A DNA stretch of 64,000 nt from Ignavibacteriales bacterium (lineage in GTDB: Bacteria; Bacteroidota; Ignavibacteria; T3Sed10-11), in contig PWXV01000155.1 of assembly GCA_003568415.1 (NCBI GenBank), positions 17,114 through 81,113 of the forward strand, in the 5' to 3' direction. Shown piece after piece: positions 9,767 to 58,400 of this stretch (the first letter of the stretch is position 1; each line of letters opens with the position of its first letter). The translations under genes and the position numbers were made by a program. The notes below the pieces were generated by a model, which was given only the letters and a program-made list of their open reading frames with translations, did no database searches and was not told the DNA's origin.

Positions 9767-11170
<1,404 letters not shown>

Positions 11171-11183
11171 AACACTTCCTCCA

Positions 11184-11232: not shown

Positions 11233-11249
11233 GCATTTGTTATCCCTTT

Positions 11250-12775: not shown

Positions 12776-12832
12776 AGTAATTCATTGTTGTTAGTAATTG
12801 GAAGGATTTATGATTTGTACTAATAGTATCAC

Positions 12833-13549
12833 TTAGAGCAGACCCCGCTCTGCAAAACTTGTATACGTATTCCCTGCAATTATAACGTGATCATGCACGG
12901 GGATACCGATTACTTTTCCGGATTCAACAAGTTGTCGTGTGATCATTTTATCTTCTCTACTTGGATCAGGGTTTCCGCTCGGGTGATTATGAACAAGTAT
13001 GATAGATGCAGCGAGGCCGTCGATTGCCGCTTTAAATACTTCACGCGGATGGACGATGCTTGCGTTTAAATTTCCTTCTGAGATACGCACCTGTTTCTGG
13101 ATAATATTTGAAGTATTCAATAACAATACCTCAAATACTTCACGTTTCAAATGTGCAAGGTGCGGCATCATATATTGTGCAACTTCTTCCGGTCCGTTCA
13201 CCTGCACCCGCTCTACATCCCTTGAGCGGCTCAACCGTCTCCCTATCTCAAATGCAGCCACTATCTCAGCCGACCTGGCTTTCCCGAGACCACGATTACG
13301 CGTTAACTCATCAACCGATAGTTTTGATAATTCGCCCAATGTTTTGTGTTCGGAGATAAGCCGTTTCGCTAAATCGACTGCAGTAATCTTCCCGCTCCCC
13401 GAGCCGATAATTAATGCAAGAAGTTCTGCATCGCTTAATGCAGCCGGACCACGCAGGAGCAGTTTTTCGCGCGGACGGTCATCGACCGGCCATTCTTTTA
13501 TTTTAGCGTGATAAAAAGCCGCTTCTTTTACTGCATCTTGTTCCTTCAT
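12833..13549 (-). CDS. radC: RadC-family JAB/MPN domain protein (UPF0758)
   Basis: N-terminal HhH region and C-terminal JAMM motif HNHPSGNPDPS. Confidence 0.8.
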   Translation of the reverse strand: MKEQDAVKEAAFYHAKIKEWPVDDRPREKLLLRGPAALSDAELLALIIGSGSGKITAVDLAKRLISEHKTLGELSKLSVDELTRNRGLGKARSAEIVAAFEIGRRLSRSRDVERVQVNGPEEVAQYMMPHLAHLKREVFEVLLLNTSNIIQKQVRISEGNLNASIVHPREVFKAAIDGLAASIILVHNHPSGNPDPSREDKMITRQLVESGKVIGIPVHDHVIIAGNTYTSFAERGLL

Positions 13550-17722: not shown

Positions 17723-17820
17723 AGATAGAGTGTACAGTAATAATTCAACATTAATTTTTTATGATATTTCATTGATTGTTATAACATCATAGAGCGGTAA
17801 ATGATTCACCGATCTCAAAT

Positions 17821-40400: not shown

Positions 40401-43400
40401 CTGCCAGGTGGGATCACCATGAACAAACATTCGCAAAGAACGGTAATTGAACATGTCAAGTGAACGCCCGGGAAAATAACGGAATGCCTGACGACTGTCA
40501 TCCGGATTAAGATCGTTGATAGTTAAAACGAGTGATTGTTCGTTCCCTTCAATGATATCGCCGTCGGGAAGCCGCTCACGTGGTGGCCGGACACCGGGTG
40601 GAGAATAATATTCCGGATTTTCTTGTTTATTCAACACGGAGATAACCATCGTCGTATCATCCCGCATTTCTTCTTCCCATTGATTACCGGTAAATGCAAA
40701 GTCTGCGATACGCATATGAATATTATCTTCAAACCCTGAAAACCATACCCTGAAAAACTCAACATTATTTAAAGATGGATTACCGATCTCATCATCATAC
40801 TGGCGTATCGGTATACGAAACTGATACCAACCGTTATGACCACCACCGACTATATAGGGATTATCCTGAAAGGCGTTTGTTGTATCAAGGCTAATTTCGT
40901 ATTGAAAATAACTATTCGTAAGGTCGACTATACCGTTTCTGTTTAAGTCCTCGGTATCCGGCAGAAAACCGGCTTCAGTTTGGGCGTTTCCTTCAACGCC
41001 GGTTACACGGGAATAATCACCTTGTTGTGGCGGTCGGTAATTATCACCAGAGGGATCATCATTGAGTGTATCATAGAAAGGAGTTCCCTGATAGTGTTCC
41101 AACCAATCTGCAAATACTTCCCGTTCTTCTTCGGTCGGGATTCCGTCGAGCCCGACATCCTCTTCATCATGGAGTGTCCCGGTTGGATTTCTCCCTCTAC
41201 TTCCATCCTCCTGGTGGATACCATTTACACGATTACCCCGTAACCGATCCTCATATATTATCCTTTCACTTATCTGTCCCATATTAATGTACATTTTCCC
41301 GTCGCGGGTATCACCTTCTATGCGTGCCCAGAACTCAATGAAGTTGAGATTTTCATCGACCAGATTTTTTGTCGAACCGGTCAACGCCCGCATCAAACCA
41401 CCCCAGGAGTTATACGGGTTATTATAAATCGTCTCCATGAGATCCCATGAATAATTATATTCACCACGTTCACGAGGTCTATATTCTACGTGCATTACTG
41501 TTACACGATCTTCACCACGCTGGACCTGGCGTTCCGGCCAAATATCGGTCACCAATGTTACTTCGTCACTGGGGAACGTATTATACCAGAATGTTCTCGC
41601 TTTATGTTGCACCAAAGAATCCGCAGGAACTTCACCTAACTCACGGGTTCTGACGGGCGGGCTTGCATACTTCCAAGTACCATAATTCACACCGATTGGT
41701 ACACTACGCCGCGATCCTTCAAAGTCATCGATATAGGCAACACCTTTTCCATCGTCCATTGCGACGGTTGATGCTTTTGTGTTGCGATTTGGTCTTATAT
41801 ACGCAGCTTCGCCGCTTATCTGCAGGTTGGATTCAGCCATCGAATTGAAAAACGGAAGTTTATTCATTGCATCGGTTACGAAATTAACCGGGACACGGGT
41901 TCTGCCATCGATACCGAATATCGCATTGTTTACCGGCTCCTCGCCGACACGTACTTTATCGGCCAGCGTTTCTTCCCGCATACTCATCATTGTAAAATTG
42001 ATATCGGTATAACGTCCGATTGGCAACTCTCCCCGTAAGCCAAGTAATGTCTTTGAGGCGATCTGGAATAATTCATTCTGTTCATAGGTAATACGCAGAT
42101 CGGCTCCCGGCTGCATAGCTGCATCACTCCGGAGTGTGATCTGTCCGAGCATATAATCTACGGTGTAATCCGTCCCCTCCTCAAGCCGCTGGGTTCCCAG
42201 AAAAACTTGCACACTACCTTCGACGACGTTAAAACCAAGATTATAGGACGATGCCACCGATGAAGAAAATCGCCCGCGTACCCGGAATCTATCTTTTTCA
42301 TTTCGTGCACGCGCTGCCGAGACTGTAGTATCGTACACTTCGGGGTATGTGTACTCATCCAGTCCTGCTTCGGCAAGCTTATCATCAAACGGTCGTAAAG
42401 ATGGGAAGATAAGCTCACCGCGTGCGGCATCTATCGTAACTCCCGGACGCCAATCGAATCTGTTATCGGGGGTGGGTGCACCTGCTTCATCAGTTTGATC
42501 AAGGCCAAATACCTGCAGCAATGGTTGTCCGTCAAGTTCATCGGTAGGTTCCTGACCGGGGATATCGTATTCTACTCGAAGTTCAAATCCTTCCTTTTGT
42601 AAATTTCTGCCACCGATAGGATAGATATTTCGAAGTTGTAATTTCCAAGCATCGGTATATTGCGGCTGGAGGTTTCGCGGTCGCACGAGTTTTAAAACTA
42701 TCCGGCTCGAATCATCGTCAACATTTACTACGAAATCACCGTATTCCCCTCCATCAGCCCGGCGATAGGCAACGGCAATCGCCTGATCATCCGAAAGTTG
42801 TTTTCGCATTGTCAATCTGCCGGTTCGCGTGCTGATGTTGTAATCCTCTCCTTCACGAAGCATTACAAACTGTCCGATTTCCACCTCACCTGATATCCCC
42901 GACTCAAGATCCCGCCACTGTGCAGGATCATATCCTGCAGCAGGGCGTGGAGGTAAATCTATGTGTGCAGTAACGGGGCGTTCATTGACGTCGGTTATGA
43001 CACCGCTTCGTGTCACCCATACTTCGAGATCGGTAATTTCAAGTTGCGGATTATATTGCGGTTCAAGCGCCATTGCCGCCTCATAACCATCTATATAATC
43101 TTCATCGATGAAATAATGATTGCGAGAATAATCGTAAGGTCTGATTTCAAAGGTTTGTTCTTCTGCACCACCGCTTAATGTTAATTCTTCAGACCGCCCT
43201 TTTTGCTGTGAAGCAACTGCAGTCAATCTCATCGGTCCGAATTGCAGATTGGATTTTATACCAAATAATGCCTGGCTACTTCCGATAAATTGTGTTGGTG
43301 TTCGTAATGATACGTTCCCTGCCTCAATAGTTTGTATGATCTCATCATCATATCCGTCATACCTGATACTGAGTTGATTCTCATATTCAAATGAACGCTG

Positions 43401-44315
43401 TGTATCCCAGTCGGCATTAATATTAAGTTTATCACCGACAAGGCCGTCTACATTTATCTGCACGTCCTGTTTGAAATCCGGTTCATTACGCGTATTGTCA
43501 AGCCGTGATAAAGAGGTCTGATCGGATGATTGCCGACGGAAACCTGCACGAATATCAACGGCTCCTGAAATATTCAACCGGATACCGGGTTCACCGAATA
43601 TATTGAGTAGCGGATTTGGAGGAACGGGTATATCAATCGTAGTTATATCGCTGATAAAATCGCCGAGATCAGCTTGCCTACCTTCACCATATTCAAGTTC
43701 GTAGGCATAGGCAAGACGTTCCCATCCTTCCCTTCGAATGGAACGGGATCTATTGTGAATATAGTCATCCAGTGACATTGTGACCGGAATTTTAACATCT
43801 TTCCCGTCAACCGTTTCTCTAATAGTGACATGACGACCGAGTGAGTCAAGTTCTACCGTTCTGTTATAAACCTGATTTCTGTTTTCAAGAAATAGCGGAT
43901 GGCGTCGTTTATTGTTGTGAGAGAGAGACGCATACGGTGTATCTTTTCTGCGGTATCGAAAATATTTCTTACGTGCGGTTGAATCGGTCGGTACAAGCAA
44001 ACGCTCCTGAATTTCTTCCCGGGTCAATGTGGTATCGGTAACGCCATCGATGATATCCCGTTCACGATCTCTACGCATCGCTTCCCTTCTACCGCGCACG
44101 CGTGCAGGTCTTCGGTCAATATCTTCATAGATGACCCCTGTCGTATCCTGAGCAACGGTATCACTTTCGGAAACCTTTGCAAACGGTAACGTGTTGGCTT
44201 TTATAGTGATGTGGCCGGAGAGAAGGTATAAAATAGCAACCGCTAGGGTAATGAAACCCACCGGACCCACTTTTCGCAAAAGCGGCAGAGAAATTGATCC
44301 CTTGGTTTTATCCAC
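37455..44315 (-). CDS. sprA: Type IX secretion system outer-membrane translocon SprA/Sov
   Basis: 2286-aa secreted protein with compositional and motif resemblance to SprA. The size is characteristic, beta-strand-rich repeats run throughout, and other T9SS genes lie in the same window. Confidence 0.75.
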   Translation of the reverse strand: MDKTKGSISLPLLRKVGPVGFITLAVAILYLLSGHITIKANTLPFAKVSESDTVAQDTTGVIYEDIDRRPARVRGRREAMRRDRERDIIDGVTDTTLTREEIQERLLVPTDSTARKKYFRYRRKDTPYASLSHNNKRRHPLFLENRNQVYNRTVELDSLGRHVTIRETVDGKDVKIPVTMSLDDYIHNRSRSIRREGWERLAYAYELEYGEGRQADLGDFISDITTIDIPVPPNPLLNIFGEPGIRLNISGAVDIRAGFRRQSSDQTSLSRLDNTRNEPDFKQDVQINVDGLVGDKLNINADWDTQRSFEYENQLSIRYDGYDDEIIQTIEAGNVSLRTPTQFIGSSQALFGIKSNLQFGPMRLTAVASQQKGRSEELTLSGGAEEQTFEIRPYDYSRNHYFIDEDYIDGYEAAMALEPQYNPQLEITDLEVWVTRSGVITDVNERPVTAHIDLPPRPAAGYDPAQWRDLESGISGEVEIGQFVMLREGEDYNISTRTGRLTMRKQLSDDQAIAVAYRRADGGEYGDFVVNVDDDSSRIVLKLVRPRNLQPQYTDAWKLQLRNIYPIGGRNLQKEGFELRVEYDIPGQEPTDELDGQPLLQVFGLDQTDEAGAPTPDNRFDWRPGVTIDAARGELIFPSLRPFDDKLAEAGLDEYTYPEVYDTTVSAARARNEKDRFRVRGRFSSSVASSYNLGFNVVEGSVQVFLGTQRLEEGTDYTVDYMLGQITLRSDAAMQPGADLRITYEQNELFQIASKTLLGLRGELPIGRYTDINFTMMSMREETLADKVRVGEEPVNNAIFGIDGRTRVPVNFVTDAMNKLPFFNSMAESNLQISGEAAYIRPNRNTKASTVAMDDGKGVAYIDDFEGSRRSVPIGVNYGTWKYASPPVRTRELGEVPADSLVQHKARTFWYNTFPSDEVTLVTDIWPERQVQRGEDRVTVMHVEYRPRERGEYNYSWDLMETIYNNPYNSWGGLMRALTGSTKNLVDENLNFIEFWARIEGDTRDGKMYINMGQISERIIYEDRLRGNRVNGIHQEDGSRGRNPTGTLHDEEDVGLDGIPTEEEREVFADWLEHYQGTPFYDTLNDDPSGDNYRPPQQGDYSRVTGVEGNAQTEAGFLPDTEDLNRNGIVDLTNSYFQYEISLDTTNAFQDNPYIVGGGHNGWYQFRIPIRQYDDEIGNPSLNNVEFFRVWFSGFEDNIHMRIADFAFTGNQWEEEMRDDTTMVISVLNKQENPEYYSPPGVRPPRERLPDGDIIEGNEQSLVLTINDLNPDDSRQAFRYFPGRSLDMFNYRSLRMFVHGDPTWQVNGDGTDRDAEIFIRFGADTSNYYEYRQPLWPGWHEQNNVQIDFAQLTTTKAVRDTATNQSAPIPVEDGPPGATYRVVQNPSLTNIRYMSIGIANPGDENGGGRTLRGQVWVNEMRLIDVDNTPGWAYRVSSSINLADFGTVRFNMSQTDPNFHRLDRQFGSRQTNRNWEMGASFSLQKFLPDDWQRGTELPINYTRTESIVNPQYIPGTDILISSAMERQLAQLEEAGVDPEQAQQMVEEIRLESQTVRVTDSYTAPNIRVQIPTDRWYLQETINNLRFSFNYNKTRDRSPTIEHRESWSWQARSTYQLTFSRNNYWQPFESLFDGVPLLDHYKDVRIFYSPANFNTGLNFQRNRSNERLRRQDRVRPTQRNFTGNRNMAFNWRFFENGFINPSFDYRLNIASSLTHFELDEQGRQRPFSDIMGDIVGGPGIFDFGLDNNYTQEVRLDTRPRLPSLWGINRYFEFNTGYSSSYRWTRNLSQETLGRSSGVNARFDASMTINLKDLGNRIFGVEDQRARGRQQQDQRGRGRTAQQPQEEDAEEEVKDEDEESVTGFAAIKQALEYLIKVPFLDYDRISISFNQNQNIQNSGLVGGTGLGNFWGKMPFSGDPELQHGPSRRYQLGFASRPAELRAPNGSLMDSFSETNRVTVRTQRQLWQGARIEFNWNYSWNFNRNHSLVTDSLGVPEITSVNKAGDVDRSFFTLPAFPGLSMLGGNLDEVMSIFQASINDPTDDRSEGEKLSDAFEKGMESFSLLRSIFGDALPRVNWNFRWEGLERLGIFENWARRVSLDHAYSSGYTQRWRDRADGSGRQTEMQRITMGFNPLVGLNVTFKEFMKGNLTANARYNTSTNYDLNYSSRIIVKSLTQEVSFTASYGRRGFAMPLFGLSLSNDIDISMTYSLSRNERVRFNTEVLRGDGEGQVDDGATRTSFEPRVRYVLSQRVTASIFYRYSKVSPNQEGSRTPGMTTNEAGLDINIAIR

Positions 44316-47073: not shown

Positions 47074-47982
47074 TTAGAACCCTACTTGCAACTTTAAAAC
47101 CGGTACCAACCGATCACCGTAAATATCATCCCGGTTTTCTATATCGATGGCAAGATGTGTCTGATTAAAACTATGAGCAAGAAAAGCTGCGTGAAATGCA
47201 CTTATAAAGTGATTTAAAAAAACTGCAATTGCCGCTGTATGCGCTCGAGCATAAAGTGTGTTAGCGTAGCCGCGTTCACCCGAATAAAACCTGAACATAT
47301 CCGATACTTCGGTAAAATATAAACCCGGATTAGCTACACCGGTACCTGTTTCCAGATCGACATCTTCATGCGGCTCTGAATCTTTCCAGCCCCGATTGTA
47401 CTGGGGGTATTTCCCGATCAACTCGTAATACTGTTGTGTACCATAGGGCTCAAGGGTATGCGAGAATTGTGGAATCGAACGTTCGAACTCATTTATTTCT
47501 CCCCAATCTACCCGTTCCCATGGCGGAAGACTTTCATCTGTCAGATAACTAATGTCCCCTCCCCAATATTCGTTCAGCCAGATCACATAATCTACAACAC
47601 TCCAATGGGTATCGGCATAATTCTCAAAGAAAGCAGTTTGTTTGTCTCCTCTGTGATCATAATGGAGGTAAAAATACCAGGCAGTAACTTCCAGACCAAA
47701 ATGTGCCAGACCGCGCCACCATCTGCCTGCATAAACCTCTCCGGCACCGGGCACTGCCGCCGACATAAATGCGGCAAGGAGTGGTGATTTTCTGCTCACC
47801 GTATTGCTGTAATTATTATCGGTCTTAGCATATATGTTCTCCAGAAAAGAACCAGCATGATACTCTATAACATCCCGATCAAAAATCTTATGATTGATCG
47901 GTTCAATCATATCAATCGGATCGGATGCAAGTAATACCGACGGTAGTAACAATAAAACTGTTATATATTTTATCTTCTCCAT
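47074..47982 (-). CDS. Secreted hypothetical protein (possible DUF5683-like AVPGAGExY motif)
   Basis: Signal peptide, hydrophobic segment SAAVPGAGEVYAGRWW, Trp/Tyr-rich. No confident family assignment. Confidence 0.35.
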   Translation of the reverse strand: MEKIKYITVLLLLPSVLLASDPIDMIEPINHKIFDRDVIEYHAGSFLENIYAKTDNNYSNTVSRKSPLLAAFMSAAVPGAGEVYAGRWWRGLAHFGLEVTAWYFYLHYDHRGDKQTAFFENYADTHWSVVDYVIWLNEYWGGDISYLTDESLPPWERVDWGEINEFERSIPQFSHTLEPYGTQQYYELIGKYPQYNRGWKDSEPHEDVDLETGTGVANPGLYFTEVSDMFRFYSGERGYANTLYARAHTAAIAVFLNHFISAFHAAFLAHSFNQTHLAIDIENRDDIYGDRLVPVLKLQVGF

Positions 47983-50900
47983 AACGATCCAGTCCCTAAA
48001 TCAAACCCGAATAAAATTCCGAAATAAAAATTCCACTGTTTACCATATGTCACCGGTTCATTGCGAAAGACGCGGGTGAACTCATCGAAGCCGTATGCCG
48101 CACTGAAAAATATCCGTGTTGGATATGAATAAAATGAGAATGATTCCAGCCTGAGTTCAAATCCTACATTGCGTTTCAGTTCGTCTATACCGGGAAATGA
48201 ACCTGTCCACGCATCACCGATATCGGCGAATACCGATCCGTACAAGCGTTCGAACTGCATTTGTGCAATCCTGAAATCAATTCCTTCCAGAATCGGAAAC
48301 CGGTATGTCAGATTGAGCGATGCGTACTCATTGCCACCCAGCGAATAAAACGGGTATCCCTGCATACCCATCAGTCCGCCAATGTAGAAATTAAAAAAGT
48401 CGTCGACCTCTTTACCAAGAATTGATCCACCCCGGAGCCGGGCGCTTAAAGTCTGATGTCTTGACAGGGGATAATGTTCCCGCCACTCGCCTTCTACACG
48501 ATGAAAGCGTGGCCGGTCGTAATCGGTATACAAAATATTCTCATCCTCATCGTATACCAATTCCGGATTATACTTATTAAACTCATAACCATATCGCAAC
48601 TGAATAAACCTGCCGACCGGGTTAATTTCGGTTTGTATTGTCGGAAGTATTCCCCGGTGGGTCAATTGTGCCTGTAATGTATTGCCGACCAGGTATAATT
48701 CTCCAAAAGATCCAACAAGATTATTGGTTTCGGGGATAAAGAAACTACCCACATCATATCCGTATCTGCTATGACGGTACAAAATCGTAAGTTCGTTCCT
48801 CGGATTAAAAATATGGTCTTTCAGAAGAACATTAAATTCCATCAGATTGTAAGTAACATCAACATCGATATTTAAATCCTCACGAAGTTCAATAACTGCA
48901 TCGGTTTTCCGTGTTATATTATAAATTTCAAACGATATATCCGGATACCAGCCGACCAATGAGAAGGGAGGTAATCCGGTGTTCCATTCAAAAATGGCAA
49001 AAAGATCGCGCTCCAGCCGCCGGTTGATAGTTGCTCCCGCAAAGAGTGCATGGTGCTCCAGAATATCACGGGTCATCATATACAGGCCGGGTTTTATCAT
49101 ATCGGTGAAACCGCGTTCGGGAATATAGTTATCGAACCGGATCAACGGCACAAGCATCGTGTTGGTAAATACCGAAGAGTAGTTATCCGAATCATACTCG
49201 GGAACATCCCTGTCGTTATAATTCCGCAGCCGGTTCCAATCGATACCGCTTGCATCTGTTCCCGGATTATAGGCAGCGTGAATACTCTCATCAAACCAGC
49301 CAGGCTCTCCGGCGATATAATGTTTACTTTCATCGACAGGTGCTAAGTCGCTATACTGTGCTATCTTATAACCACTTGACTGATACGATGCATAAACTAA
49401 CACATTCTCATTTACCGACGGCATAAATGCACCACCCAGTACATTTGTAATTCTTTCCGAATTTTCATTTATGCGGTTGTAACGATAGATATTAAAGATT
49501 CCGGTCTTATCGGATGCGAAATAGATGTGTACGCCATCGGGGGAATATGAAGGATCGCGCGCATCATAAGTATCACTGCCATCGATAATTGAAAAATCTT
49601 CCGAATGTAATGAATATTCAACAATATGCCGGTTAAATCCGCTTGATGTCGCAAATACAATTTCATCACCGGTTGGCGACCACTGAGGTCTATAGACCTG
49701 CTCCCCGTGTTTATTATCAGTAATATACGTGATCCGCTTTTCCTCTATATTGTAGAGAACAAGATTCTGCGTGCCATCTGCCACAGTGACGGCGGCAAGC
49801 GTGCTCCCATCGGGAGATATATCCGGGTCGTGGAGTCGTAACCCTCTGGTTAATCGTTCCGTATCTCCGGACTCAACATCGACGACAAAGAGATCGCTAA
49901 ACCCCTGCCAGTTCGGATTTTGACGTGTGATGCGTGAGAAGTATATCTTATCTCCATCCGGTGACCAGGAAATTCGCGAACGGACATTACGCTCAACGAG
50001 TTTCGTATCACCGGTCTGCCTGTCCCCGATATAAAGTGCAGACTGCCCGAAATAATCTCTTCCCTTGTTAGATACGTACGCAACATACTTACCGTCCGGT
50101 GAATATACCGGATGAAAGTTACCGAAACCTTTTTCGACTATCAATTCCCCTTTTTCCAAATTAGCTTTAATTGTTTCGGTCCGCTTGTGGTAATCATTAA
50201 TAACTGCCGATCTCCAATCATTATATACTTCCCGTCCCGATTTACCAAGCGCGCGGCGCATCGCCTGATCAATATTCACAATAGTCAACGAGGCAAGCTC
50301 TTCAGATATCGTTCGCAAAGCATCTTTACCGTATTCACTTGCTATATACCGCACAAGCGAAAAGCCCGCATTGTATGCAGATTCATTACCGAGACTTGTT
50401 TTACCGAATACCGACATCTCATTCCACGTCAGCATATTATCATCGAGCGCATACATTCGCAAGATCATATCACGATGGGTATCCCAGGTATCATATTCTA
50501 AGCCGGGGTGCATAAACTGCGCTGTACCTTCTGCAAACCAACTCGGCACAATAAATCCCGATATGGGGTATGATACGAGAATATTCGGGAAACCATACAA
50601 CACATCTGGTCTGCGCTCATCCTCATACCCCATCCACTGAATATAAAATGCCGGCACTCTTTTTCCGAATTTCATCGATGCCTGAATTTGAACTATGTGA
50701 GTAAATTCATGCGCGATAACATTCCGGAGCCAGTTACTTGTACCCCGCATGTCAAAATCAAGTGCGCTTGCCCATATCTCGATTTTGTTATCATAGAAAA
50801 ATGCCGCACCGTTCGCAAAATCGCCATGGTCGCGGACGACAAGATGTGTCTTTGCATCAGGTTCATATTTATAAAGCGATGTGATGGGTTTGTATACATC

Positions 50901-51134
50901 TTCGGCAATTTTTGCAGCTAATCTGCCGGTTCGTTCCGCACCGTCATGGTAGTGGATATAGAAATGTTCTGTCTCAATGGTGTACCAACCGTCTTTCGGA
51001 TCCTCGGGAAATCCCCATTGAGCAAGAAGTGAGTATGGCAGGATTCCAACTGTGAAAAGAATAATTCCTAACCACATAAAGCCGTGAAAAACTTTTACCC
51101 CTGCCCTCTCACGTTTATCTATCCTTACAGTCAT
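47970..51134 (-). CDS. Mosaic outer-membrane protein: HExxH zincin-like N-domain + PD40 (TolB-like) beta-propeller repeats + Omp85/D15-like C-terminal beta-barrel
   Basis: VIAHEFTHIVQ motif. At least five SPDG/SPTG PD40 repeats (VYSPDGKYVAYVS, SWSPDGDKIYFS, DISPDGSTLAAV, QWSPTGDEIVFA, SYSPDGVHIYFAS). C-terminus ends in alternating aromatic beta-strands (FFSAAYGFD ... FYFGILFGFD), as in surface-antigen barrels. Confidence 0.55.
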   Translation of the reverse strand: MTVRIDKRERAGVKVFHGFMWLGIILFTVGILPYSLLAQWGFPEDPKDGWYTIETEHFYIHYHDGAERTGRLAAKIAEDVYKPITSLYKYEPDAKTHLVVRDHGDFANGAAFFYDNKIEIWASALDFDMRGTSNWLRNVIAHEFTHIVQIQASMKFGKRVPAFYIQWMGYEDERRPDVLYGFPNILVSYPISGFIVPSWFAEGTAQFMHPGLEYDTWDTHRDMILRMYALDDNMLTWNEMSVFGKTSLGNESAYNAGFSLVRYIASEYGKDALRTISEELASLTIVNIDQAMRRALGKSGREVYNDWRSAVINDYHKRTETIKANLEKGELIVEKGFGNFHPVYSPDGKYVAYVSNKGRDYFGQSALYIGDRQTGDTKLVERNVRSRISWSPDGDKIYFSRITRQNPNWQGFSDLFVVDVESGDTERLTRGLRLHDPDISPDGSTLAAVTVADGTQNLVLYNIEEKRITYITDNKHGEQVYRPQWSPTGDEIVFATSSGFNRHIVEYSLHSEDFSIIDGSDTYDARDPSYSPDGVHIYFASDKTGIFNIYRYNRINENSERITNVLGGAFMPSVNENVLVYASYQSSGYKIAQYSDLAPVDESKHYIAGEPGWFDESIHAAYNPGTDASGIDWNRLRNYNDRDVPEYDSDNYSSVFTNTMLVPLIRFDNYIPERGFTDMIKPGLYMMTRDILEHHALFAGATINRRLERDLFAIFEWNTGLPPFSLVGWYPDISFEIYNITRKTDAVIELREDLNIDVDVTYNLMEFNVLLKDHIFNPRNELTILYRHSRYGYDVGSFFIPETNNLVGSFGELYLVGNTLQAQLTHRGILPTIQTEINPVGRFIQLRYGYEFNKYNPELVYDEDENILYTDYDRPRFHRVEGEWREHYPLSRHQTLSARLRGGSILGKEVDDFFNFYIGGLMGMQGYPFYSLGGNEYASLNLTYRFPILEGIDFRIAQMQFERLYGSVFADIGDAWTGSFPGIDELKRNVGFELRLESFSFYSYPTRIFFSAAYGFDEFTRVFRNEPVTYGKQWNFYFGILFGFDLGTGSLWRR

Positions 51135-51135
51135 T

Positions 51136-54100
51136 TTATCTTACCACCGCAATCTTTATAAATACTACTTGTGAGTTGTTTGCACTGCGTGCTTCTATTC
51201 TCCCGAGGTATACACCGCTCTGGACACCGGATGCATCCCATGAGATTTCATTATCCATACCACCGTTTCCCGGACCGTCAAAGGAAGTTATTTTCTCACC
51301 GTTCATCTCATAAATTGAAATAGAAACATCGGCGCTTTCACTGAGATAGTACCGGATATATGTTTCACCGTCATAAACGGGATTTGGCCAATTATAAGCA
51401 CGGTCTTCCGGCAAAAACTCATCAACTAATGGTTGTCGCGGAAGCGTAATTCTTTGTACATTACTTCGCCGGTGATCGATTCGTTCTTCTCCCCACCACA
51501 CGCGGTCTGCATTCCATTCACCGGAAAACCTGTATGCATATAAAAGATTATCCGCAGTTACGAATGCAAGAGCAAACTTCCCCTCTGCCTCGAATACAGC
51601 AGGTGATCCAATAACGCGTTCACCGGCTGCAAGGGGAGTTCCTGCAGCAGCACTTCCGTGTGCATTATGAAATTGTATAAGATTATCGTTACTGCTAACG
51701 GCTACGTCTATTCTGTCATTTCCGTCAAAGTCGGCTGCAACGGGATAAATATTATAGAGTAGTTGTTCACCTACACGAAGCGGAAAATGATCCAGAACGG
51801 CTCCGCTTCTGTTATATGCATATAATGCAGTGCCTAATGGTGTGACTATATCGATTATCCCATCCTTATCAAGATCAACGGCAATCGGGAAACCGATTCC
51901 GTTAACAGTGACTCTTTCGATTGAAAATTTTTCGAGTATAGATTGTTCTGAACTGCTTAGCATATGGTTCGATTTTGGCGGACTCACCATAATTTCCGGC
52001 TGCATAATGTAAACAGCTTCATCGCCGACACCTGCTACATAAGCACTACCGTTTTCCATAAAAGCAGTCGTTCTTTTGACGGTTTCGGGAAACTCCCTCT
52101 CAAATTCTTCTTCATTAACGAATAAAACGCTTGTTTCACTTGTCGCCGCCCAATTATTTTCATTGAAAATATGAATATCGGTAATGGTACTTCCATCTGA
52201 TACTGTTCCCGCTGTTTTGACCTCGGTACCGTCTATAATTTTAATTTCTCCATCCCCGGTACCGACAATACACATACCGTTCTGCAATAATGCAGGTCCG
52301 GCTGTAACATTCGCACCAAACGAAAAAGATTCGCCGGCAAAAAATTCATATTCTTCGCCGTTTTCAGGTGCAGCAATATTCCATTTTGTAACGTATGATT
52401 CATCCGTCCGCGTATAGAGAACGATACTGCCATTATCATCGTACCAGGCAGGCGTACCGGTAACCCGTCTCTCATACGGTCTCTGGATATGAGTTAGTTC
52501 ACCATACGCATCGATAACCTGCAGCACACCGTCATTCACAAACAATATTCCATTGCCAAATGGAACCGGAGATGTCGAACTGCCGGCTGCATGCAACCGG
52601 TATGGAAAACCATCTAACAGACTAACTTTTTCCGAACCCACACGAACGGTCAATTGCATAACCGGATCACGTTCCGAGAAATCATACATTGTAATATTAC
52701 TCGGTGCACCGGTATTGCTCACTGAAGGAGGAATGGTAGTGGCATCGAAACGATTTTCATAAATTGGTGCGGGGTTATCCTTAAACCAGAAGTCGAATTG
52801 TGTTCCATCCTCCGATCCCTGCCCCGGCTGCAGGAACTCAAATTCACGTCCGATATCCTGAGAACCATCTGCTTCTACCACCCGTACTCCGCGGTTTTCA
52901 ATATCAGCGTTGATCCGATTCTCAGCTATACGTGTATCTATAATGCGTTCATCTATATGCCAGATAACAATACCGCCGTCATAAAATATTTCATCTGCTT
53001 CGATATACGCACCGGGTAAACTCCAGTCGTATACTTCGACGTCCAACACTACACCAGCTATGTCGCTGATGTCAAAAGCATTGAAACCAACCCGGTCCCG
53101 CTCCACGGTGAACTCAACTTCCTCACCATTTTGCATGAGCGTAACGGTTTGTCCCGCACCGAAGGGATTACGATGACGGTTTTCAACAAGATAATACTCC
53201 CGTTCATTTATCGGCACACGCAGAATGCTGTCAGGTTGTCGATGTGCTACAGCTGAAATGGAAAAGGTATGTTCCCCTGGCTGCACTGTTTTCGGTTCGA
53301 TCCATCCGAGATAATATTTTTCCCAGGCCGATAATTCCGGTGGGAATAAGCCCATAAAACTAAAGATCGCCTGGCCATCCATCAATCCGAATCTACCGAT
53401 ACCGGATCGTCCGGTATCGGTATTAAACAAATCGGGGAGACCGAGCCGGCTTCCGTACATTGCACAAACGAGACCGTTCATCCCAAGCTGGAGTAATTGT
53501 CTGCCGGTAACAAGGTTCAGTTCGCGATTTTGTGTTTCGGGTAAAACCATTGAATTGGTAATACGAAATCCATCGGGACCTACTTCGACACCGTTGTAAT
53601 CTTCTCCGAAAATTCGCCTGAGACTTTGCGGACCGAGATACAACGAGGGGATATCAAGTGGCGTCGGATCAAATCCAAATATACTTGTAAGGTCAACATC
53701 CCGGCCTACACCTGCATGAAAAATGATGAAGGTATCATACTCATCAAATGGTATTTGCGGGGATTGTTCGGCAGCAAGCTGCCACGCTTCTTCAAAAAGT
53801 AATCCTATCTCTGTAAAATCACCATTTGTGCGGGGACTATATGTTCCCATTTGTTCCGACAGAGTGAATATTTCATCCCAGACAGTATATTCAATGGTCA
53901 ACCGCCCACCTGAAACTTCATCATAATACCGTCGTGCAAATTCGAGATGATATTCAAAGTATTCAGCATCGTGCGGCGGCGGGTTCAATATGTCTGTCGT
54001 ACCATCTGATAGATCAAACTGTCCATCACCGGTAGTACGTGAATCTTCATCCGGTTGGAATTGTACCATAATTGCAAGAGTTCGGAGTGTGTCGGGCACA

Positions 54101-54234
54101 TCGGGGCGAGAAATATAAGAAGCGGAATCACCCCCGGCTAGCGTTAGGGGGTGATTCATAATCTGACCGAATAATCCAACAACTAAAAATACGACACCGG
54201 CTCCAGCACAGAAAAGAGGTCGAAAATATTTCAT
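51136..54234 (-). CDS. T9SS C-terminal-domain (type A sorting signal) secreted protein with FG-GAP-like repeats and an M6/InhA-like region lacking HExxH
   Basis: C-terminal ~80 aa (NPVYDGETYIRYYLSESADVSISIYEMNGEKI ... SGVYLGRIEA ... FIKIAVVR) fits the Por secretion tail. DxDxDG-type repeats (DLDKDGIIDIV, DFDGNDRIDVAV). GLVCAMYGSRLGLPDLF aligns to the InhA HEFGHDLGLPDEY segment with the catalytic residues replaced. Confidence 0.55.
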   Translation of the reverse strand: MKYFRPLFCAGAGVVFLVVGLFGQIMNHPLTLAGGDSASYISRPDVPDTLRTLAIMVQFQPDEDSRTTGDGQFDLSDGTTDILNPPPHDAEYFEYHLEFARRYYDEVSGGRLTIEYTVWDEIFTLSEQMGTYSPRTNGDFTEIGLLFEEAWQLAAEQSPQIPFDEYDTFIIFHAGVGRDVDLTSIFGFDPTPLDIPSLYLGPQSLRRIFGEDYNGVEVGPDGFRITNSMVLPETQNRELNLVTGRQLLQLGMNGLVCAMYGSRLGLPDLFNTDTGRSGIGRFGLMDGQAIFSFMGLFPPELSAWEKYYLGWIEPKTVQPGEHTFSISAVAHRQPDSILRVPINEREYYLVENRHRNPFGAGQTVTLMQNGEEVEFTVERDRVGFNAFDISDIAGVVLDVEVYDWSLPGAYIEADEIFYDGGIVIWHIDERIIDTRIAENRINADIENRGVRVVEADGSQDIGREFEFLQPGQGSEDGTQFDFWFKDNPAPIYENRFDATTIPPSVSNTGAPSNITMYDFSERDPVMQLTVRVGSEKVSLLDGFPYRLHAAGSSTSPVPFGNGILFVNDGVLQVIDAYGELTHIQRPYERRVTGTPAWYDDNGSIVLYTRTDESYVTKWNIAAPENGEEYEFFAGESFSFGANVTAGPALLQNGMCIVGTGDGEIKIIDGTEVKTAGTVSDGSTITDIHIFNENNWAATSETSVLFVNEEEFEREFPETVKRTTAFMENGSAYVAGVGDEAVYIMQPEIMVSPPKSNHMLSSSEQSILEKFSIERVTVNGIGFPIAVDLDKDGIIDIVTPLGTALYAYNRSGAVLDHFPLRVGEQLLYNIYPVAADFDGNDRIDVAVSSNDNLIQFHNAHGSAAAGTPLAAGERVIGSPAVFEAEGKFALAFVTADNLLYAYRFSGEWNADRVWWGEERIDHRRSNVQRITLPRQPLVDEFLPEDRAYNWPNPVYDGETYIRYYLSESADVSISIYEMNGEKITSFDGPGNGGMDNEISWDASGVQSGVYLGRIEARSANNSQVVFIKIAVVR

Positions 54235-54245: not shown

Positions 54246-55328
54246 TTACCACGAAAGCAATAGTGTGAATCGCAACGTATCCGATAGTGGATGATTCTCT
54301 TCTATAGTTGCTATATAACTAAAATCAAAACCGTAGATGTCGTATCGGATACCGGCACCGAAGGTCAGGAACTTGCGGTTACCATGATCTTCGTGTTCAT
54401 GGAAATAACCGGCACGTAATGCAATAAAACCGGCATACCAATATTCTAATCCACCGGACATAATTACTTTTTCTAAGCCGCCGTCACCCCAGGCAGTAAA
54501 GATCGCTTTATAAAATGGATCTGGTTGCGGGATTTCTTCGGTATCCGGATCGCGTTCATAACGGCGTACTAAAATTCGACTGAAGTCAGCACCCAGTGTC
54601 AACTCATTTGTTTCGGTATCAACCAATTTCAGACCAAACCCTGCCCTTAAATTGGTCGGGATAGGATCAGCCTGGTCGGCATCGATATATGTTATTCTCG
54701 GACCAAGATTTTGTAAATTAGCGCCGAGGGTCAGCGGCATATCAAACAATGATGTTTTGTAAAGGATACCGATATCACCTGCAACTGTCGTTCCAACACC
54801 GGTACCTTCTTCCTGTTCAGTTCCTATCGGTGATAAAGCACTATGAATTACCCGCAGGTTTACTCCGAGTCCTAAATTGGAATTAATCTTTGTAGCATAA
54901 CCGGCTGTGACCGCAAACTCATAGCTTCGGAATGTCCCGATCGGATCCGGTCCGAGCGATGATGTCCGTGTATGTTCACCCAAATTCAGATAGGTAATTG
55001 CTGCGGATACAGTTCCGTTGAGTGATTCAATGTGATTCCTGTAATTCAGGTAATCATAAAAGAGGTCGGACATACCGAATTCAGGCAACCAGTTAGTATG
55101 CGTGATACTGATCTCCTGTCCTGTTTGAAACGCAAGACCTGCAGGATTCCAATGGATCGCAGCGGCATCATCTGCAATACCGGTTCCGATTTCACCCATA
55201 CCCGAAGCACGAGAGTTCGGCGATATCATCAAAAATGGCACAGCAGCTTCACCTTGCGCTTCAGCCGATCCGTTGACAAAAAGACATATCAACAATAGAG
55301 CTGCGATAAAGGAATACATTGTTTTCAT
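54246..55328 (-). CDS. porV: T9SS outer-membrane beta-barrel PorV (LptO) / PorQ family
   Basis: Signal peptide, then AAVPFLMISPNSRASGMGEIGTGIADDAAAIHWNPAGLAF, the conserved N-terminal motif of the PorV/PorQ FadL-like family. Immediately downstream of porU, as in many Bacteroidota. Confidence 0.65.
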   Translation of the reverse strand: MKTMYSFIAALLLICLFVNGSAEAQGEAAVPFLMISPNSRASGMGEIGTGIADDAAAIHWNPAGLAFQTGQEISITHTNWLPEFGMSDLFYDYLNYRNHIESLNGTVSAAITYLNLGEHTRTSSLGPDPIGTFRSYEFAVTAGYATKINSNLGLGVNLRVIHSALSPIGTEQEEGTGVGTTVAGDIGILYKTSLFDMPLTLGANLQNLGPRITYIDADQADPIPTNLRAGFGLKLVDTETNELTLGADFSRILVRRYERDPDTEEIPQPDPFYKAIFTAWGDGGLEKVIMSGGLEYWYAGFIALRAGYFHEHEDHGNRKFLTFGAGIRYDIYGFDFSYIATIEENHPLSDTLRFTLLLSW

Positions 55329-55465: not shown

Positions 55466-58400
55466 CTATCTCATAACGACTAATCTGCCGAGCGCCTCAC
55501 TTGTATATTCTCCGTCAGCTGTTCGTGCAATAACTTTATAAAAGTAAACGCCATTCGCGAGCCGGTCTCCGTCATCATCGTAACCGGTCCAGGGTATTCT
55601 GACAAACCGATCGGTGACGCTGTATTCTTGTAATTCGGCAATGAGGCGTCCGGCTACCGTGTACACTTTTATCTCCACATCAATCGGCACATTCTGATTA
55701 TGCTGGAAAGTAAACACGGTCTCACGCTGAAACGGATTCGGATAGTTATAAACATTCTGTACGGTCAATTGCTCACTGGAAGCGACTTCGAAAAATATTT
55801 CTGCAGTCGACGAGTTATTGTACACATCCCATGCACGCATTTTTAAATGGTGAGGGCCGGATTCGAGTTCATCCATTTGATACTCAATACTTCCCTCCTG
55901 ATAGCTGTCAACTGCACCGGTATAGTAGTCGGTGAGGTCAATGCTCTCACCATCATTGTGCCAGGCTTCGATACGATGCCCGACCCCGCCCCCTGATATA
56001 TTGATCCCCGATTCATCAAAGAGATCGACTAAAAGCAAGGGGTGCTCGGATACGAGATCTCCGCTCCGGAAATTTCTGTCATCGAGATACATTGTTATTT
56101 CAGGCCCTTCAGTATCTGGTGTCACGGTAGTATCGATGCCGCCCAATACAATATCCCTGCTGAATCCCCGTCCATCGCTATTATCTTCCCAGAAATATAG
56201 CGCTATTCTCCCCTCTCTACCTTCGTGACTTATATCCTTCGGCACAACAAAACTTGATGAATACCGACCGCGATTAATTGAACTCTCACCCCGAAATATA
56301 ACATTTCCGGATATCGTAAACGACCATCCGCCCCACTCAGTCACACTAACCACTTTATCCGAATCATAAACACTTACAAACATACGACCATCAAAATCTT
56401 CATTAAGTGAACCGTCAGGTTTGTTAATAGTACCATCAATGGTAACTTTTTGCAGTGCTTTCAGCATAACCGTCTCATCAACCGGCTCATCGTTAATTTT
56501 CGTGACCGATGCATTATATTTGGGTATTTGCAAACGTACCGTCGGATCTCCGAGTAAAACAAATTTTATATCATTCACGCCATGCCGCACCTGCTTTGTC
56601 GCAAACAGTGCGTCACCGACCCGCGGATACGTACCGTCGTTCAACGGATTCAATAAATTCTGGTAAAATCTATTGTTGAACTGTGCGTTGTCTGATGACC
56701 AGACTATACGTGAGGATGACAGGAGGCCTATAGTGCCACCTTCCTCACGGCTAACAAGTAACTCACCGCCGCTTTGTTCGCTCGGATCATCAAATCGAGA
56801 AAAATCACAGGTAGCAGCAGTCACAAAAGAGAGCCGGTTACGGTTATTGAGTTGCGGAATAGTAGTCTCCTTCACAAAAATCCATTCGTGAGCCCATACA
56901 CGCGGATTGCCGTGGCCTGTCCAGTTAATAATAAGCGATCCCTCATTAAACGTGCGTACTATTTCTTTGTTAACTTCAGGTTGACGGCGACCAGTCGCAG
57001 TATTCTCAATAGGATACTCGATAGCATAAATTTTCTCTTTTTCGAATGCTGCGGGAGTGAAATCACGGGCAAGTTGTTCGGATTGCCAGGTGTGCAGATT
57101 CCCCTCATTGCCGCCGCGAGTTGTCAATCCATTATCGGCAATATACGTAACCAAATTTCTCCATGCACCGGGATCGGATTTCGTTTCGTAATTAATAATT
57201 TTATCAACCATCACGCGGGCATCTTCTTCGTTAATTGCATTCAATCTGCCGATAGATAGTGACGGGCGGCGCGATCCGTCTGTAAATTGCACAAAGAAAT
57301 CATCAGTTGTATAGGTATTTATTTGACTGAAGGATTCATTGGTTTGCCATGTGGGCACATAATTACGCCGGTAGCCGAGATACTCACGGTAATCGTATGA
57401 GCCGGAACCAAACAATAGTACATACCTCGGTGTCACCTGCCAGGATTCGTAAGCATGGGACAGGAAATCACGGATTGCAGTGGGATCGACCAACCCGCCG
57501 GAAAACTCATTATATATGCTTTTCACATCAACGACAATGGTAGATAAACTATTCTCTGTAAATGACTCCCGGTGCTGCTTTAATCGTTCTGCCTCCGATA
57601 CCAGGTGCGGATGGGCAACGATAATGAATTCCGCACCTTCTGCAATACCGCGAAGATTCGAATTCTCAATCGGTTCAATCGTTTCAATTGATCTATAACC
57701 GTTTGGTGCAGCCGCAGCATATCTGCCGGGTGCTCCACGTTGTTCTTCGGATTGAAACCGTATTGCTGCACCTTCAATGTTTTCGGTAATACGGTTAACA
57801 TCTGTATAGTCCGTTACTTCATACGCAGTAATTTGAGAGGAGGTAAATCCTTCTACGGCAAATTCAACAACTCCTGTCGTATCAGGTGCGGTAAAAACTA
57901 AATGATCGTCTTCTGCTTGAAAACTCCTCGGATAGTGAATTTCAAACCATTCAAGAAATCCTTCAGATTGAGCGCCGGCATTATATTGAAATCGTAGAGC
58001 ACTCCGGTCATCCGGAAACGATCCGGATCTTGTAAACATTGTAGTTGCACTTCTGGCAGCATAATTTCCGGTTATTGTACCGAGATTAACACCGGAAACA
58101 GGTATCGCGCCAAGACTTACCCCCTGATCTTCAATACTAAAGTTTGTCTGGCTCGGTGCTCGAGCGGCCACCTGAATACGATATCGGGTAGGTGCCTGAG
58201 GTGTAAATCCATGCAACTGCTGGGGAAAAGTCGATACATTTCCCGGAGAGAACGATTCTCCCATCCATTCACGACCTGAATCGAGTAAATTGATTTTCGG
58301 ATCGCGATATACTAAACTTGCAATAAAATGGTCGGGTCGTATAGGGTTTTGTTCATCCAATGAGGGAACTGTTTGCATCCGGCGGCCTTGTTCCCCGCCA

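Follow-up and report, generated by a model that had tools for sequence, protein, structure and literature searches.

The question raised by this locus is what a single envelope protein with a zinc-peptidase motif, a beta-propeller and an outer-membrane barrel may be doing next to T9SS genes. The protein is encoded by gene X, located at positions 47970-51134 of the 64-kb stretch of DNA that was analysed as a whole (the window). An earlier note, made from the letters alone, had described a single 1054-aa ORF at this place without giving the strand; the ORF list and translation agree with it and assign X, like the other features given with coordinates below, to the minus strand. The ORF starts with ATG and encodes a peptidase-propeller-Omp85 protein with zero cysteines. 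All 120 of the 120 best matches listed are full-length homologues with at least 49 % identity, and the collinearity of these 120 proteins excludes a mis-assembly of the peptidase or barrel regions. The AlphaFold2 (AF2) model of the whole protein was confident (pLDDT 87.8, pTM 0.86). Residues 1-38 (51021-51134) were read from the sequence as a predicted Sec (SPase I) signal peptide, which terminates in LLA followed by Gln and has no lipobox; the Gln at position +1 of the cleavage site is invariant in the family, M20 is a possible alternative start and residues 12-34 form a helix of low pLDDT in the AF2 model. A T9SS C-terminal domain is absent from X, so X itself is not T9SS cargo.

The mature protein begins with a predicted gluzincin (clan MA) metallopeptidase domain (residues ~45-325; 50160-51002), assigned by Pfam matches in relatives and by Foldseek. 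Peptidase_MA_2 (PF13485) was matched by 43 of 43 close and 34 of 42 distant relatives (best E=9e-12); X itself scored 27.7 bits, under the gathering threshold of 32.4. The model of the isolated N-domain was of moderate confidence only (pLDDT 71), and its top 50 Foldseek matches in the PDB were all metallopeptidases of the M61, M9 or M1 families, with E values from 2e-4, which places the zincin motif noted previously (VIAHEFTHIVQ) in a gluzincin fold. The HExxH zinc-binding and catalytic motif, H142-E143-F144-T145-H146 (50697-50711), would be expected by chance in a protein of this length with a likelihood of about 2-3 % according to our estimate. Its H, E and H and the downstream E202 were invariant in 120 of 120 close relatives and made up four of just eight invariant columns among 103 cluster representatives with 24-50 % identity; HExxH was kept by every family representative in which the N-terminus was retained. 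E202 (50529-50531) lies in the motif P-x-W-F-A-E-G-x-A-Q (E and G each in 120/120 close relatives), on the helix following the HExxH helix in the AF2 model. On conservation, the model and the analogy with M1-type W-x-x-E-G motifs it is predicted to be the third zinc ligand, the gluzincin Glu. X thus shares its fold with the gluzincins (Peptidase_MA_2 and the catalytic domains of M1, M61 and M9 collagenase), which likewise carry HExxH on one helix and the Glu ligand in a W-x-x-E-G-like motif on the next, but the match is remote (E 2e-4 to 1e-2, 11-17 % identity), the HExxH-to-Glu spacing of X is 55 residues with a conserved beta-hairpin insert (161-191), and the GxMEN motif of M1 exopeptidases was not seen in X.

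The peptidase domain is followed by a PD40/TolB-type beta-propeller (residues ~328-596; 49347-50153), identified by Pfam, TolB matches and Foldseek. The PD40 profile matched X with E=3.4e-16 and five explicit SP(D/T)G repeats lie at residues 345, 391, 440, 486 and 531, in accordance with the at least five PD40 repeats claimed before. The AF2 model contains 23 strands between residues 329 and 593, which we read as six blades. Sequence matches in the PDB were to TolB, and so was the Foldseek match (1.5e-12, rmsd about 3 Å over 242-249 columns); S9 peptidases and tricorn were also among the Foldseek matches of X, and its relatives gave matches to Tricorn_N/Tricorn_2nd and DPPIV_N. In propeller-gated peptidases (tricorn, and prolyl oligopeptidase/DPP-IV/acylaminoacyl peptidase of S9) a PD40-type propeller adjoins the peptidase, as in X, and by this analogy the propeller of X may also act as a gate, although catalysis in those enzymes is by serine instead of metal and the order of domains is different.

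A linker of about 60 residues (597-658; 49161-49346), delimited by the AF2 model and profile searches, connects the propeller with the barrel. It shows scant secondary structure at pLDDT 79-92 and differs in length between clades of the family; no POTRA domain was matched in X by Pfam or NCBIfam profiles. Residues 659-1044 (48003-49160) are predicted to form an Omp85-type beta-barrel. The 16 long strands between residues 659 and 1041 of the AF2 model, the Foldseek match to the Deinococcus BamA barrel 8xnb_A (E=1.5e-7, TM 0.57), the PF01103 matches of relatives over the gathering threshold (best E=4.6e-16) and the lid-lock motifs described below all support the Omp85-like C-terminus proposed earlier. 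Of the expected Pfam domains, PD40 was found on X itself, whereas PF01103 was reached only through relatives, X giving no match at E<=0.01; the NCBIfam profiles for BamA and TamL matched X weakly (0.003 and 0.004).

The lid-lock features of Omp85 proteins, namely the loop-6 motif (L/M)RG(W/Y) and FxDxG, have been defined before (PMC11358297). Extracellular loop 6 of X (48330-48398), between predicted strands 11 and 12 of the AF2 model, contains G-M-Q-G-Y (924-927 = MQGY), with Gln in the place of the Arg or Lys of the family consensus M-K/R-G-Y. Among the 120 close relatives this column holds K in 93, R in 15 and Q in 12, and the following G and Y are present in 120/120. The FxDxG motif F969-A970-D971-I972-G973 (48216-48230) falls on predicted strand 13 and occurs in relatives as (F/Y)xDxG (D 119/120, G 120/120); an hhalign comparison with one POTRA-Omp85 protein, not significant at E=0.24, paired it with FTDGG. 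The candidate C-terminal beta-signal FYFGILFGF (1036-1044; 48003-48029) is marked by conservation, with F1042 and F1044 in 120/120. The 10-residue tail after it (47973-48002) is found in the closest relatives only, and many other clades stop right at ...LLFGF, ...LFDF or ...GIGF. X therefore resembles the BamA/TamA/TamL insertases in its predicted 16-strand barrel, loop-6 motif, FxDxG on strand 13 and terminal aromatic beta-signal. It differs from them in having an enzyme and a propeller at the N-terminus and no POTRA, in the replacement of the lid-lock Arg by Lys in most relatives and by Gln in X, and in its marginal sequence similarity (NCBIfam E about 0.003, hhalign not significant).

This architecture had been called an unusual mosaic, which did not hold: X is full-length and ordinary within a very large family (over 3,300 matches; 973 clusters at 50 % identity, E<=1e-30) that had already been described. 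Heinz & Lithgow catalogued in 2014 a 'WD40-like Omp85' (WD40-Omp85) subfamily of the Omp85/TpsB superfamily, with PD40 + PF01103 Pfam architectures and no POTRA (PMC4104836). The members in their Table S3 come from Caldithrix, Rhodothermus, Salinibacter, Chloroherpeton, Cloacimonas, Sorangium and Anaeromyxobacter, and the Phyre2 results listed there include the BamA/TamA barrel (4k3b/4c00, ~100 %), TolB (2w8b/2ivz, ~100 %) and a 'best aminopeptidase hit' (1z5h, 4kxd, 3qnf, 4ar1, ~99 %) (PMC4104836). Judged by these published Phyre2 and Pfam architectures, the subfamily has the same three-part architecture as X. The text of that paper considers the propeller only, as a 'BamA-BamB fusion', and does not discuss the peptidase or a T9SS context (PMC4104836). 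The architecture of X has thus been known since 2014, and what is new is its genomic setting.

X is the fourth gene of a tight operon porU, porV, M6i, X and a DUF5683-like gene. The sortase gene porU (55466-59596) was identified by Peptidase_C25 (4e-94) and NF033707 (1058 bits), and porV (54246-55328) by PF19572 (2.3e-31) and NF033710 (266 bits, cut-off 250). M6i (51136-54234), an 'M6-like inactivated metalloprotease' with 857 bits against NF052323 (cut-off 600), is a T9SS cargo with a type-A C-terminal domain (Por_Secre_tail match), and its sequence contains no HExxH. Coordinates and profile matches together confirm that X lies directly downstream of a T9SS cargo gene and porV-porU on the same strand. 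The porV-M6i junction is 11 nt and the stop of M6i lies 1 nt ahead of the start of X. At the other end X overlaps by 13 nt, ATGGAGAAGATAA, the start of the downstream gene (47074-47982), as had been reported; its 302-aa product scored 22.4 bits with DUF5683, under the gathering threshold, and has 402 homologues, nearly all unnamed or 'hypothetical'. Compared with the T9SS attachment complex PorU-PorV-PorZ-PorQ, X shares its operon with porU and porV, and M6i carries a T9SS C-terminal domain like PorU and PorZ, but X lacks a C-terminal secretion domain and is not homologous to any of the named T9SS components.

The same order was essentially invariant in a survey of 80 Ignavibacteria species genomes: M6i was found upstream of X in 69/69 loci, PorV in 68/68 and PorU in 61/62, and the DUF5683-like gene downstream in 63/67. 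Two Rhodothermales loci (L082 and L083) have the same five orthologues in identical order, and L087, an unclassified metagenome contig, has the cluster as in Ignavibacteria, including the DUF5683-like gene. PorU-PorV...X recurs in contig P0413, and contig P0191 and locus L085 keep PorV, an M6i-like gene and X, the M6i-like gene being confirmed by tblastn for L085 only. Synteny with porU-porV is hence near-universal in Ignavibacteria and is found again in Rhodothermales and another clade. In the window, SprA lies 3 kb away, which also goes with a T9SS setting. In the literature searched no report of this porU-porV context was found, and the T9SS literature searched gave no mention of X as a T9SS component. 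T9SS neighbours were absent around the relatives of X in a Nitrospirota MAG (L084) and the unclassified contigs L086, L088 and L089. As the family also occurs outside a T9SS context, the T9SS link is a property of one branch and not of the fold.

The best sequence and fold match of X is TolB, and relatives are annotated in source records as 'Tol biopolymer transport system component' or 'tolB protein precursor', so X could be taken for a plain TolB paralogue ('biopolymer transporter Tol') close to porUV by coincidence. This is scarcely credible. TolB of the Tol-Pal system does share the six-bladed PD40 propeller (about 3 Å rmsd, about 245 columns, 23-24 % identity), but the likeness is confined to residues ~330-600, the TIGR02800 (TolB) score of 103 bits is far under the cut-off of 343, both the TolB N-terminal domain and a tol-pal operon are absent and about 750 further residues make up the peptidase and barrel. 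The porUV-X order, kept across two classes at about 35 % protein identity, is not coincidence either, and we regard the TolB explanation as refuted by the TIGR02800 score, the AF2 model, the N-domain Foldseek matches and the synteny. X might instead be a self-contained BamA + BamB + BepA-like fusion for biogenesis or quality control of outer-membrane proteins. Barrel and propeller would then handle nascent beta-barrels, the zinc protease would degrade stalled ones, and the T9SS synteny would reflect the need to assemble PorV or SprA, a 36-strand barrel encoded 3 kb away in the window. A precedent is BepA, a periplasmic HExxH protease that works with BAM. To our knowledge all characterised insertases use POTRA domains, which X lacks. 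The family has kept the lid-lock motifs of Omp85 insertases, and envelope-biogenesis neighbours recur: lptF/lptG convergent to the X cluster (24/53 loci, only about half), BamD (YfiO) adjoining it in contig P0191, and TamB with a POTRA-Omp85 gene 4 kb upstream of the relative in L089. The likeness to a BamA-BamB fusion was itself put forward by Heinz & Lithgow (PMC4104836). However, conservation across the whole family is strongest in the columns of the protease active site rather than in features of the barrel, and the tightest partners of X are M6i, a soluble T9SS cargo, and the DUF5683-like protein rather than barrel proteins alone, which makes a role in biogenesis or quality control of outer-membrane proteins unlikely.

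The neighbours also bring to mind a type Vd-like arrangement, in which the Omp85 barrel would export its own peptidase-propeller module to act outside the cell beside the pseudo-protease M6i, which the T9SS delivers and which is attached to the surface; there the module might remove cleaved C-terminal domains from PorV loops or digest protein from the environment. PorU, PorV and M6i act at the cell surface or are brought there, as is established for the T9SS, and the linker, confidently modelled with little secondary structure, could in principle thread the barrel. PlpD, a type Vd patatin-Omp85 protein, resembles X in the fusion of an Omp85 barrel to a hydrolytic N-terminal enzyme, which it brings to the surface (PMC4104836). 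PlpD exports a patatin lipase and, like TpsB systems, possesses a POTRA, whereas X has a metallopeptidase and a propeller, no POTRA and a topology that we infer. The conserved lid-lock loop 6 and FxDxG moreover suggest a closed, BamA-like lumen, and crossing would require a module of about 560 residues, six-bladed propeller included, to be unfolded, with no obvious energy source. The default topology of Omp85 proteins has the N-terminus in the periplasm, and display on the surface seems quite unlikely.

We accept the domain architecture, active-site conservation and synteny of X as predicted from sequence and homology, and on balance lean towards X being a zinc metallopeptidase of the 'WD40-like Omp85' subfamily that is anchored in the outer membrane and serves as a T9SS accessory, probably periplasm-facing and propeller-gated. 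X would be exported by Sec, freed of its signal peptide and inserted into the outer membrane as a 16-stranded barrel bringing lid-lock loop 6, the FxDxG motif and the terminal beta-signal. The N-terminal module would most likely hang from the periplasmic face, since a linker of about 60 residues leads to strand 1 without POTRA. There the gluzincin domain, with H142, H146 and E202 as zinc ligands and E143 as general base, would pack on the propeller. Judged by the analogous tricorn, DPP-IV and S9 peptidases, this propeller probably serves to gate or recruit substrates, which would limit X to unfolded chains or peptides.

The earlier note had suggested as a possibility an outer-membrane-inserted protease or scaffold acting on T9SS cargo or the envelope. 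With three real domains and the synteny, an outer-membrane-inserted protease linked to the T9SS is a fair working idea; what speaks for a functional link, and for action on cargo in particular, is gene order. Members of the family without T9SS neighbours indicate that the core function of the fold is independent of the T9SS. The tight operon shared by Ignavibacteria, Rhodothermales and one or more other clades suggests that the branch to which X belongs cooperates with the machinery that sorts and attaches T9SS cargo. At the outer membrane its most plausible tasks would be to process T9SS cargo, C-terminal domains or partner proteins, or to control their quality.

The gene under study, here called X, is an ORF on the minus strand (47970..51134) which starts with ATG and is translated into 1054 amino acids. 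Residues are counted from the true Met1 (nt 51132-51134); the numbers printed in alignments A1/A2 and in the full-length model are one lower because the reference omitted the start codon. The stop codon of M6i, the upstream gene, is located 1 nt before the X start, and at its other end X shares 13 nt (ATGGAGAAGATAA) with the beginning of the gene that follows. The ORF with VIAHEFTHIVQ, the 13-nt overlap and the same-strand T9SS-CTD cargo gene and porV-porU upstream of it were thus all found as the earlier note had described them. The 120 best matches to X are all full-length, with at least 49 % identity, and a chimeric or mis-assembled ORF was rejected on this ground. Scans for sigma-70 promoters and intrinsic terminators across 46.5-60.5 kb gave sites no more numerous than in shuffled sequence and are therefore uninformative on the operon limits. 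The only RNA gene in the window according to the Rfam and tRNA scans is tRNA-Arg(CCG) at 7671-7745, far from X.

X begins with a predicted Sec signal peptide (residues 1-38) that ends in LLA, has no lipobox and is followed directly after the predicted signal-peptidase site by an invariant glutamine, Q39 (51018-51020, minus strand). N-terminal pyroglutamate on exported proteins is a habit in Bacteroidota, and the invariant Q39 fits it. There is no cysteine in the whole protein.

An AlphaFold2 model of X built from a 120-sequence alignment (mean pLDDT 87.8, pTM 0.86) shows four regions. In the peptidase domain (residues ~45-325, mixed alpha/beta) one helix carries the HExxH of VIAHEFTHIVQ (H142-E143-F-T-H146), and the next carries the invariant motif P-x-W-F-A-E202-G-x-A-Q. 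Only eight columns are invariant among 103 cluster representatives of 24-50 % identity, and HExxH (its two H and its E) and E202 account for four of these; HExxH was found in every representative with a retained N-terminus. On these alignments nothing in the family is more conserved than the predicted active site, and we infer that E202 is the third zinc ligand of gluzincin type. X itself scores 27.7 bits for Peptidase_MA_2, under the threshold of 32.4, and that Pfam model is matched by 43/43 close relatives and by 34 of the 42 distant relatives chosen from the 103 representatives (best E=9e-12). When the N-domain was modelled in isolation (pLDDT 71, less confident than the same region of the full model) and compared with the PDB, all 50 best matches were M61 peptidases, M9 collagenases or M1 aminopeptidases, the last including tricorn factor F3 (E from 2e-4, probability 0.97-1.00, TM-score (TMq) 0.37-0.50). 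Sequence searches of the PDB, with the single sequence or with the 120-sequence profile, returned propeller proteins only and no peptidase or Omp85 chain even at E<=10.

A chance HExxH match was rejected because the active-site columns, E202 included, are invariant, the relatives match Peptidase_MA_2 and the fold matches are exclusively gluzincins. The modelled region has the features of a thermolysin-like/M1-like clan MA(E) gluzincin fold, so the motif taken in the earlier note for a putative metalloprotease signature lies in an appropriate predicted fold, and conservation and model together predict an active zinc peptidase. A highly conserved beta-hairpin (residues ~159-189 in model numbering, also given as 161-191; 50568-50660, minus strand) is inserted between the helices that carry HExxH and the Glu. 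The hairpin is well modelled in the full-length protein only and is disordered in the isolated N-domain model; since it collapses without the rest of X, a contact with the propeller or the barrel is probable.

The propeller (residues ~328-596) comprises 23 strands in the model, read as six blades. Five SP[D/T]G repeats starting at residues 345, 391, 440, 486 and 531, together with a Pfam PD40 match (E=3.4e-16), bear out the expectation of at least five PD40 repeats, and the closest fold matches found by Foldseek are TolB proteins (E~1e-12, ~3 A rmsd over ~245 columns). A plain TolB paralogue was rejected, since TIGR02800 scores X at 103 bits against a cut-off of 343, with the propeller region alone matching, and no tol or pal genes were found near X in the window.

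The remaining part (residues 597-1044) consists of a linker of ~60 residues, nearly devoid of secondary structure in the model, and 16 long strands at 659-1041 in model numbering, mostly with pLDDT >80. The barrel of Deinococcus BamA (8xnb_A) was matched by Foldseek with E=1.5e-7 and TM 0.57. The hallmarks of the Omp85 lid-lock are (L/M)RG(W/Y) in loop 6, between strands 11 and 12, and FxDxG on strand 13 (PMC11358297). Both motifs are positioned in the family exactly as expected for Omp85. The loop-6 motif reads G-M-(K93/R15/Q12)-G-Y, with G-Y in 120/120 relatives and the basic position occupied by Gln in X itself (MQGY), and the predicted strand 13 carries (F/Y)-x-D-x-G, with D in 119 and G in all of the 120 relatives (F969-A970-D971-I972-G973 in X). 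The C-terminus of X runs ...NFYFGILFGF and then DLGTGSLWRR; its final strand FYFGILFGF is a typical beta-signal and many other clades terminate exactly there.

PF01103 does not match X at E<=0.01, although it is above threshold in 4/43 close and 7/42 distant relatives (best E=4.6e-16), among them P0129, a relative protein 50 % identical to X (29.4 bits, threshold 24). NCBIfam has no model for the X protein and gives weak matches on residues 865-978 (BamA 0.003, TamL 0.004). An hhalign comparison of the family profile with one POTRA-Omp85 protein of L089, a locus with an X relative, was not significant (E=0.24), but both lid-lock motifs were paired in it. A POTRA domain was sought in X with Pfam and NCBIfam and none was found; POTRA-less Omp85 subfamilies (WD40-like, noNterm, Metallo) are recognised (PMC4104836). 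The strands of the model, the BamA fold match and the position of the lid-lock motifs point to a predicted 16-stranded Omp85-type barrel, in agreement with the Omp85-like C-terminus proposed from the sequence alone.

The architecture proved to be neither rare nor new, and the description of X as an unusual mosaic was not borne out. A search of 5.8 billion proteins gave >3,300 matches to X; an exhaustive search of 50%-identity representatives gave 973 clusters at E<=1e-30, relatives are encoded in at least 571 GTDB species genomes, and the closest genome among the matches listed is an Ignavibacteriales MAG (85 % identity), so the window derives from an ignavibacterium. The Omp85/TpsB superfamily has been split into ten subfamilies, one of them 'WD40-Omp85', with members listed from Caldithrix, Rhodothermus, Salinibacter, Chloroherpeton, Cloacimonas, Sorangium and Anaeromyxobacter (Heinz & Lithgow 2014, PMC4104836). 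The text of that paper treats the TolB-like propeller only and suggests a BamA-BamB-like fusion. In its supplement, Phyre2 matches the members to a BamA/TamA barrel, to TolB and, as 'best aminopeptidase hit', to M1-family or collagenase structures (~99%), so the three-domain combination of X had already been catalogued. With a TolB-like propeller before an Omp85 barrel and an aminopeptidase-like region ahead of both, X is a member of a known but uncharacterised protein kind. No further paper was found in a search of the later literature on the WD40-Omp85 architecture, and none in a search for work linking Omp85, PD40 and T9SS.

The 120 best matches are mostly named 'Tol biopolymer transport system component' or 'PD40 domain-containing', and relatives are also found as 'tolB protein precursor', 'biopolymer transporter Tol' and 'DPP IV N-terminal domain-containing protein'. 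The TolB and DPP IV names cover only the middle quarter of the protein; at minimum the annotation should become 'Omp85-anchored MA-clan metallopeptidase with PD40 propeller'.

Upstream of X and on the same strand are located the sortase gene porU (55466-59596, minus strand; NF033707, 1058 bits), porV (54246-55328, minus strand; 360 aa, NF033710, 266 bits against a cut-off of 250) and M6i (51136-54234, minus strand). The 1032-aa M6i product matches NF052323, 'T9SS-dependent M6-like inactivated metalloprotease', with 857 bits and bears a T9SS C-terminal domain; HExxH was sought in it and is absent. X was likewise searched for a T9SS C-terminal sorting domain (Por_Secre_tail / CHU_C), which M6i and PorU have, and none was found. 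The downstream DUF5683-like gene (47074-47982, minus strand) encodes 302 aa that include a signal peptide and, near residues 249-270, a hydrophobic helix. Hardly any of its 402 homologues has a name other than 'hypothetical', and a search of the literature on DUF5683 gave nothing relevant. Further downstream, on the opposite strand, lptF and lptG alone separate the porU-porV-M6i-X cluster from sprA, 3 kb away (37455-44315, minus strand), which encodes a 2286-aa homologue of SprA/Sov, the T9SS outer-membrane translocon (SprA_N 2e-63). Elsewhere in the window, on the minus strand, a pair of neighbouring GAF-SpoIIE (PP2C phosphatase) paralogues is encoded at 750-5548, and a pair of metallo-beta-lactamase-fold (Lactamase_B_2) paralogues, likewise side by side, at 16724-18870.

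The conservation of this gene order was assessed by tblastn of the window proteins against 80 species-representative Ignavibacteria loci, counting only those where the contig was long enough. M6i lies directly upstream of X on the same strand in 69/69 loci, so a pseudo-protease cargo is always encoded before the apparently active outer-membrane protease. PorV is encoded upstream in 68/68 and PorU in 61/62 loci, the DUF5683-like gene follows X in 63 of 67, and convergent lptG/lptF are present in 24/53. All five genes occur in identical order at two Rhodothermales loci (L082 and L083), one of which belongs to a complete 4.8-Mb genome, with X only ~35 % identical. In both an AhpC/TSA-redoxin (thioredoxin-fold) gene is situated between X and the DUF5683-like gene (L082, 13490-14173; L083, 13338-14006). 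In a third clade (L087) the order is porU, porV, a C-terminal-domain cargo gene, X and the DUF5683-like gene, and the P0413 contig carries porU-porV and X together with a second X paralogue. Co-location of X with core T9SS genes, as claimed in the earlier note, is therefore conserved across lineages, and one large branch of the family is locked into the porU-porV operon.

At L085 (2734-12294), a locus of an organism with flagellar genes (flgG, flgA and flgI nearby), an 802-aa PorV homologue, as compared to 360 aa in the window and with a faint Reg_prop-like match, precedes a 1260-aa M6i homologue confirmed by tblastn and X; no PorU was seen in the 2.7 kb upstream. On the P0191 contig PorV and X are each followed by an unannotated protein, of 936 and 321 aa respectively, and PorU is missing, as judged from Pfam and gene-order calls only. 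On a tentative and somewhat doubtful reading, this PorV/M6i-like/X trio, which similarity search confirmed for L085 and gene order suggests for P0191, would mark an older module that later gave rise to the cluster with porU. T9SS neighbours are absent around the X relatives in a Nitrospirota MAG (L084) and at L086, L088 and L089, and because such relatives exist, the X fold is older and broader than its T9SS association. In L084 two tandem X paralogues of 1166 and 1172 aa are followed by an FG-GAP protein (6452-13519), and a few genes away a 409-aa Omp85 without POTRA and a barrel of the FadL family are encoded. The T9SS literature, as far as it is searchable, contains no mention of a porU-porV-linked X; the gene context may thus be the part of the finding that is new.

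Prediction and conservation together describe X as a probable outer-membrane Omp85 barrel that bears a zinc peptidase at the N-terminus and, after it, a propeller like that of TolB; by gene order X is packed into one tight operon together with porU, porV, M6i and the DUF5683-like gene. As the default Omp85 topology and the conserved lid-lock would have it, the enzyme module probably faces the periplasm; surface display of the module as in PlpD is the rival topology. The propeller could gate or recruit substrates by analogy with tricorn and S9 peptidases, and the substrates may belong to the T9SS, as cargo that is stalled or misfolded, as C-terminal domains or as partner proteins. Alternatively, X might be a factor for outer-membrane-protein biogenesis or quality control, a fusion resembling BamA, BamB and BepA.

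The domains and the synteny speak for the outer-membrane, T9SS-linked protease proposed in the earlier note, if not for the novelty of its architecture. In its fullest form this proposal is tentative and somewhat doubtful: outside class Bacteroidia the T9SS sorting/attachment operon would consist of porU, porV, M6i, X and the DUF5683-like gene, the last three being unrecognised T9SS accessories and X a dedicated outer-membrane protease. Such a dedicated protease could clear cleaved C-terminal domains or stalled cargo for PorV reuse, or could be a cargo-processing enzyme that acts before or after translocation.

What is understood of type IX secretion comes almost entirely from Porphyromonas and Flavobacterium. 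In Ignavibacteria and Rhodothermales, two other deep branches of the same superphylum, three more conserved genes follow porU-porV, among them one whose predicted product is an active zinc protease embedded in the outer membrane. If the genes of the cluster work with the secretion system, a proteolytic step missing from current T9SS models would be added; it could serve quality control, return the PorV shuttle for reuse or process cargo. A five-gene T9SS cluster conserved across two classes is an element worth pursuing, and with this locus the WD40-like Omp85 proteins, a large family in several phyla, have a first lead to their function.
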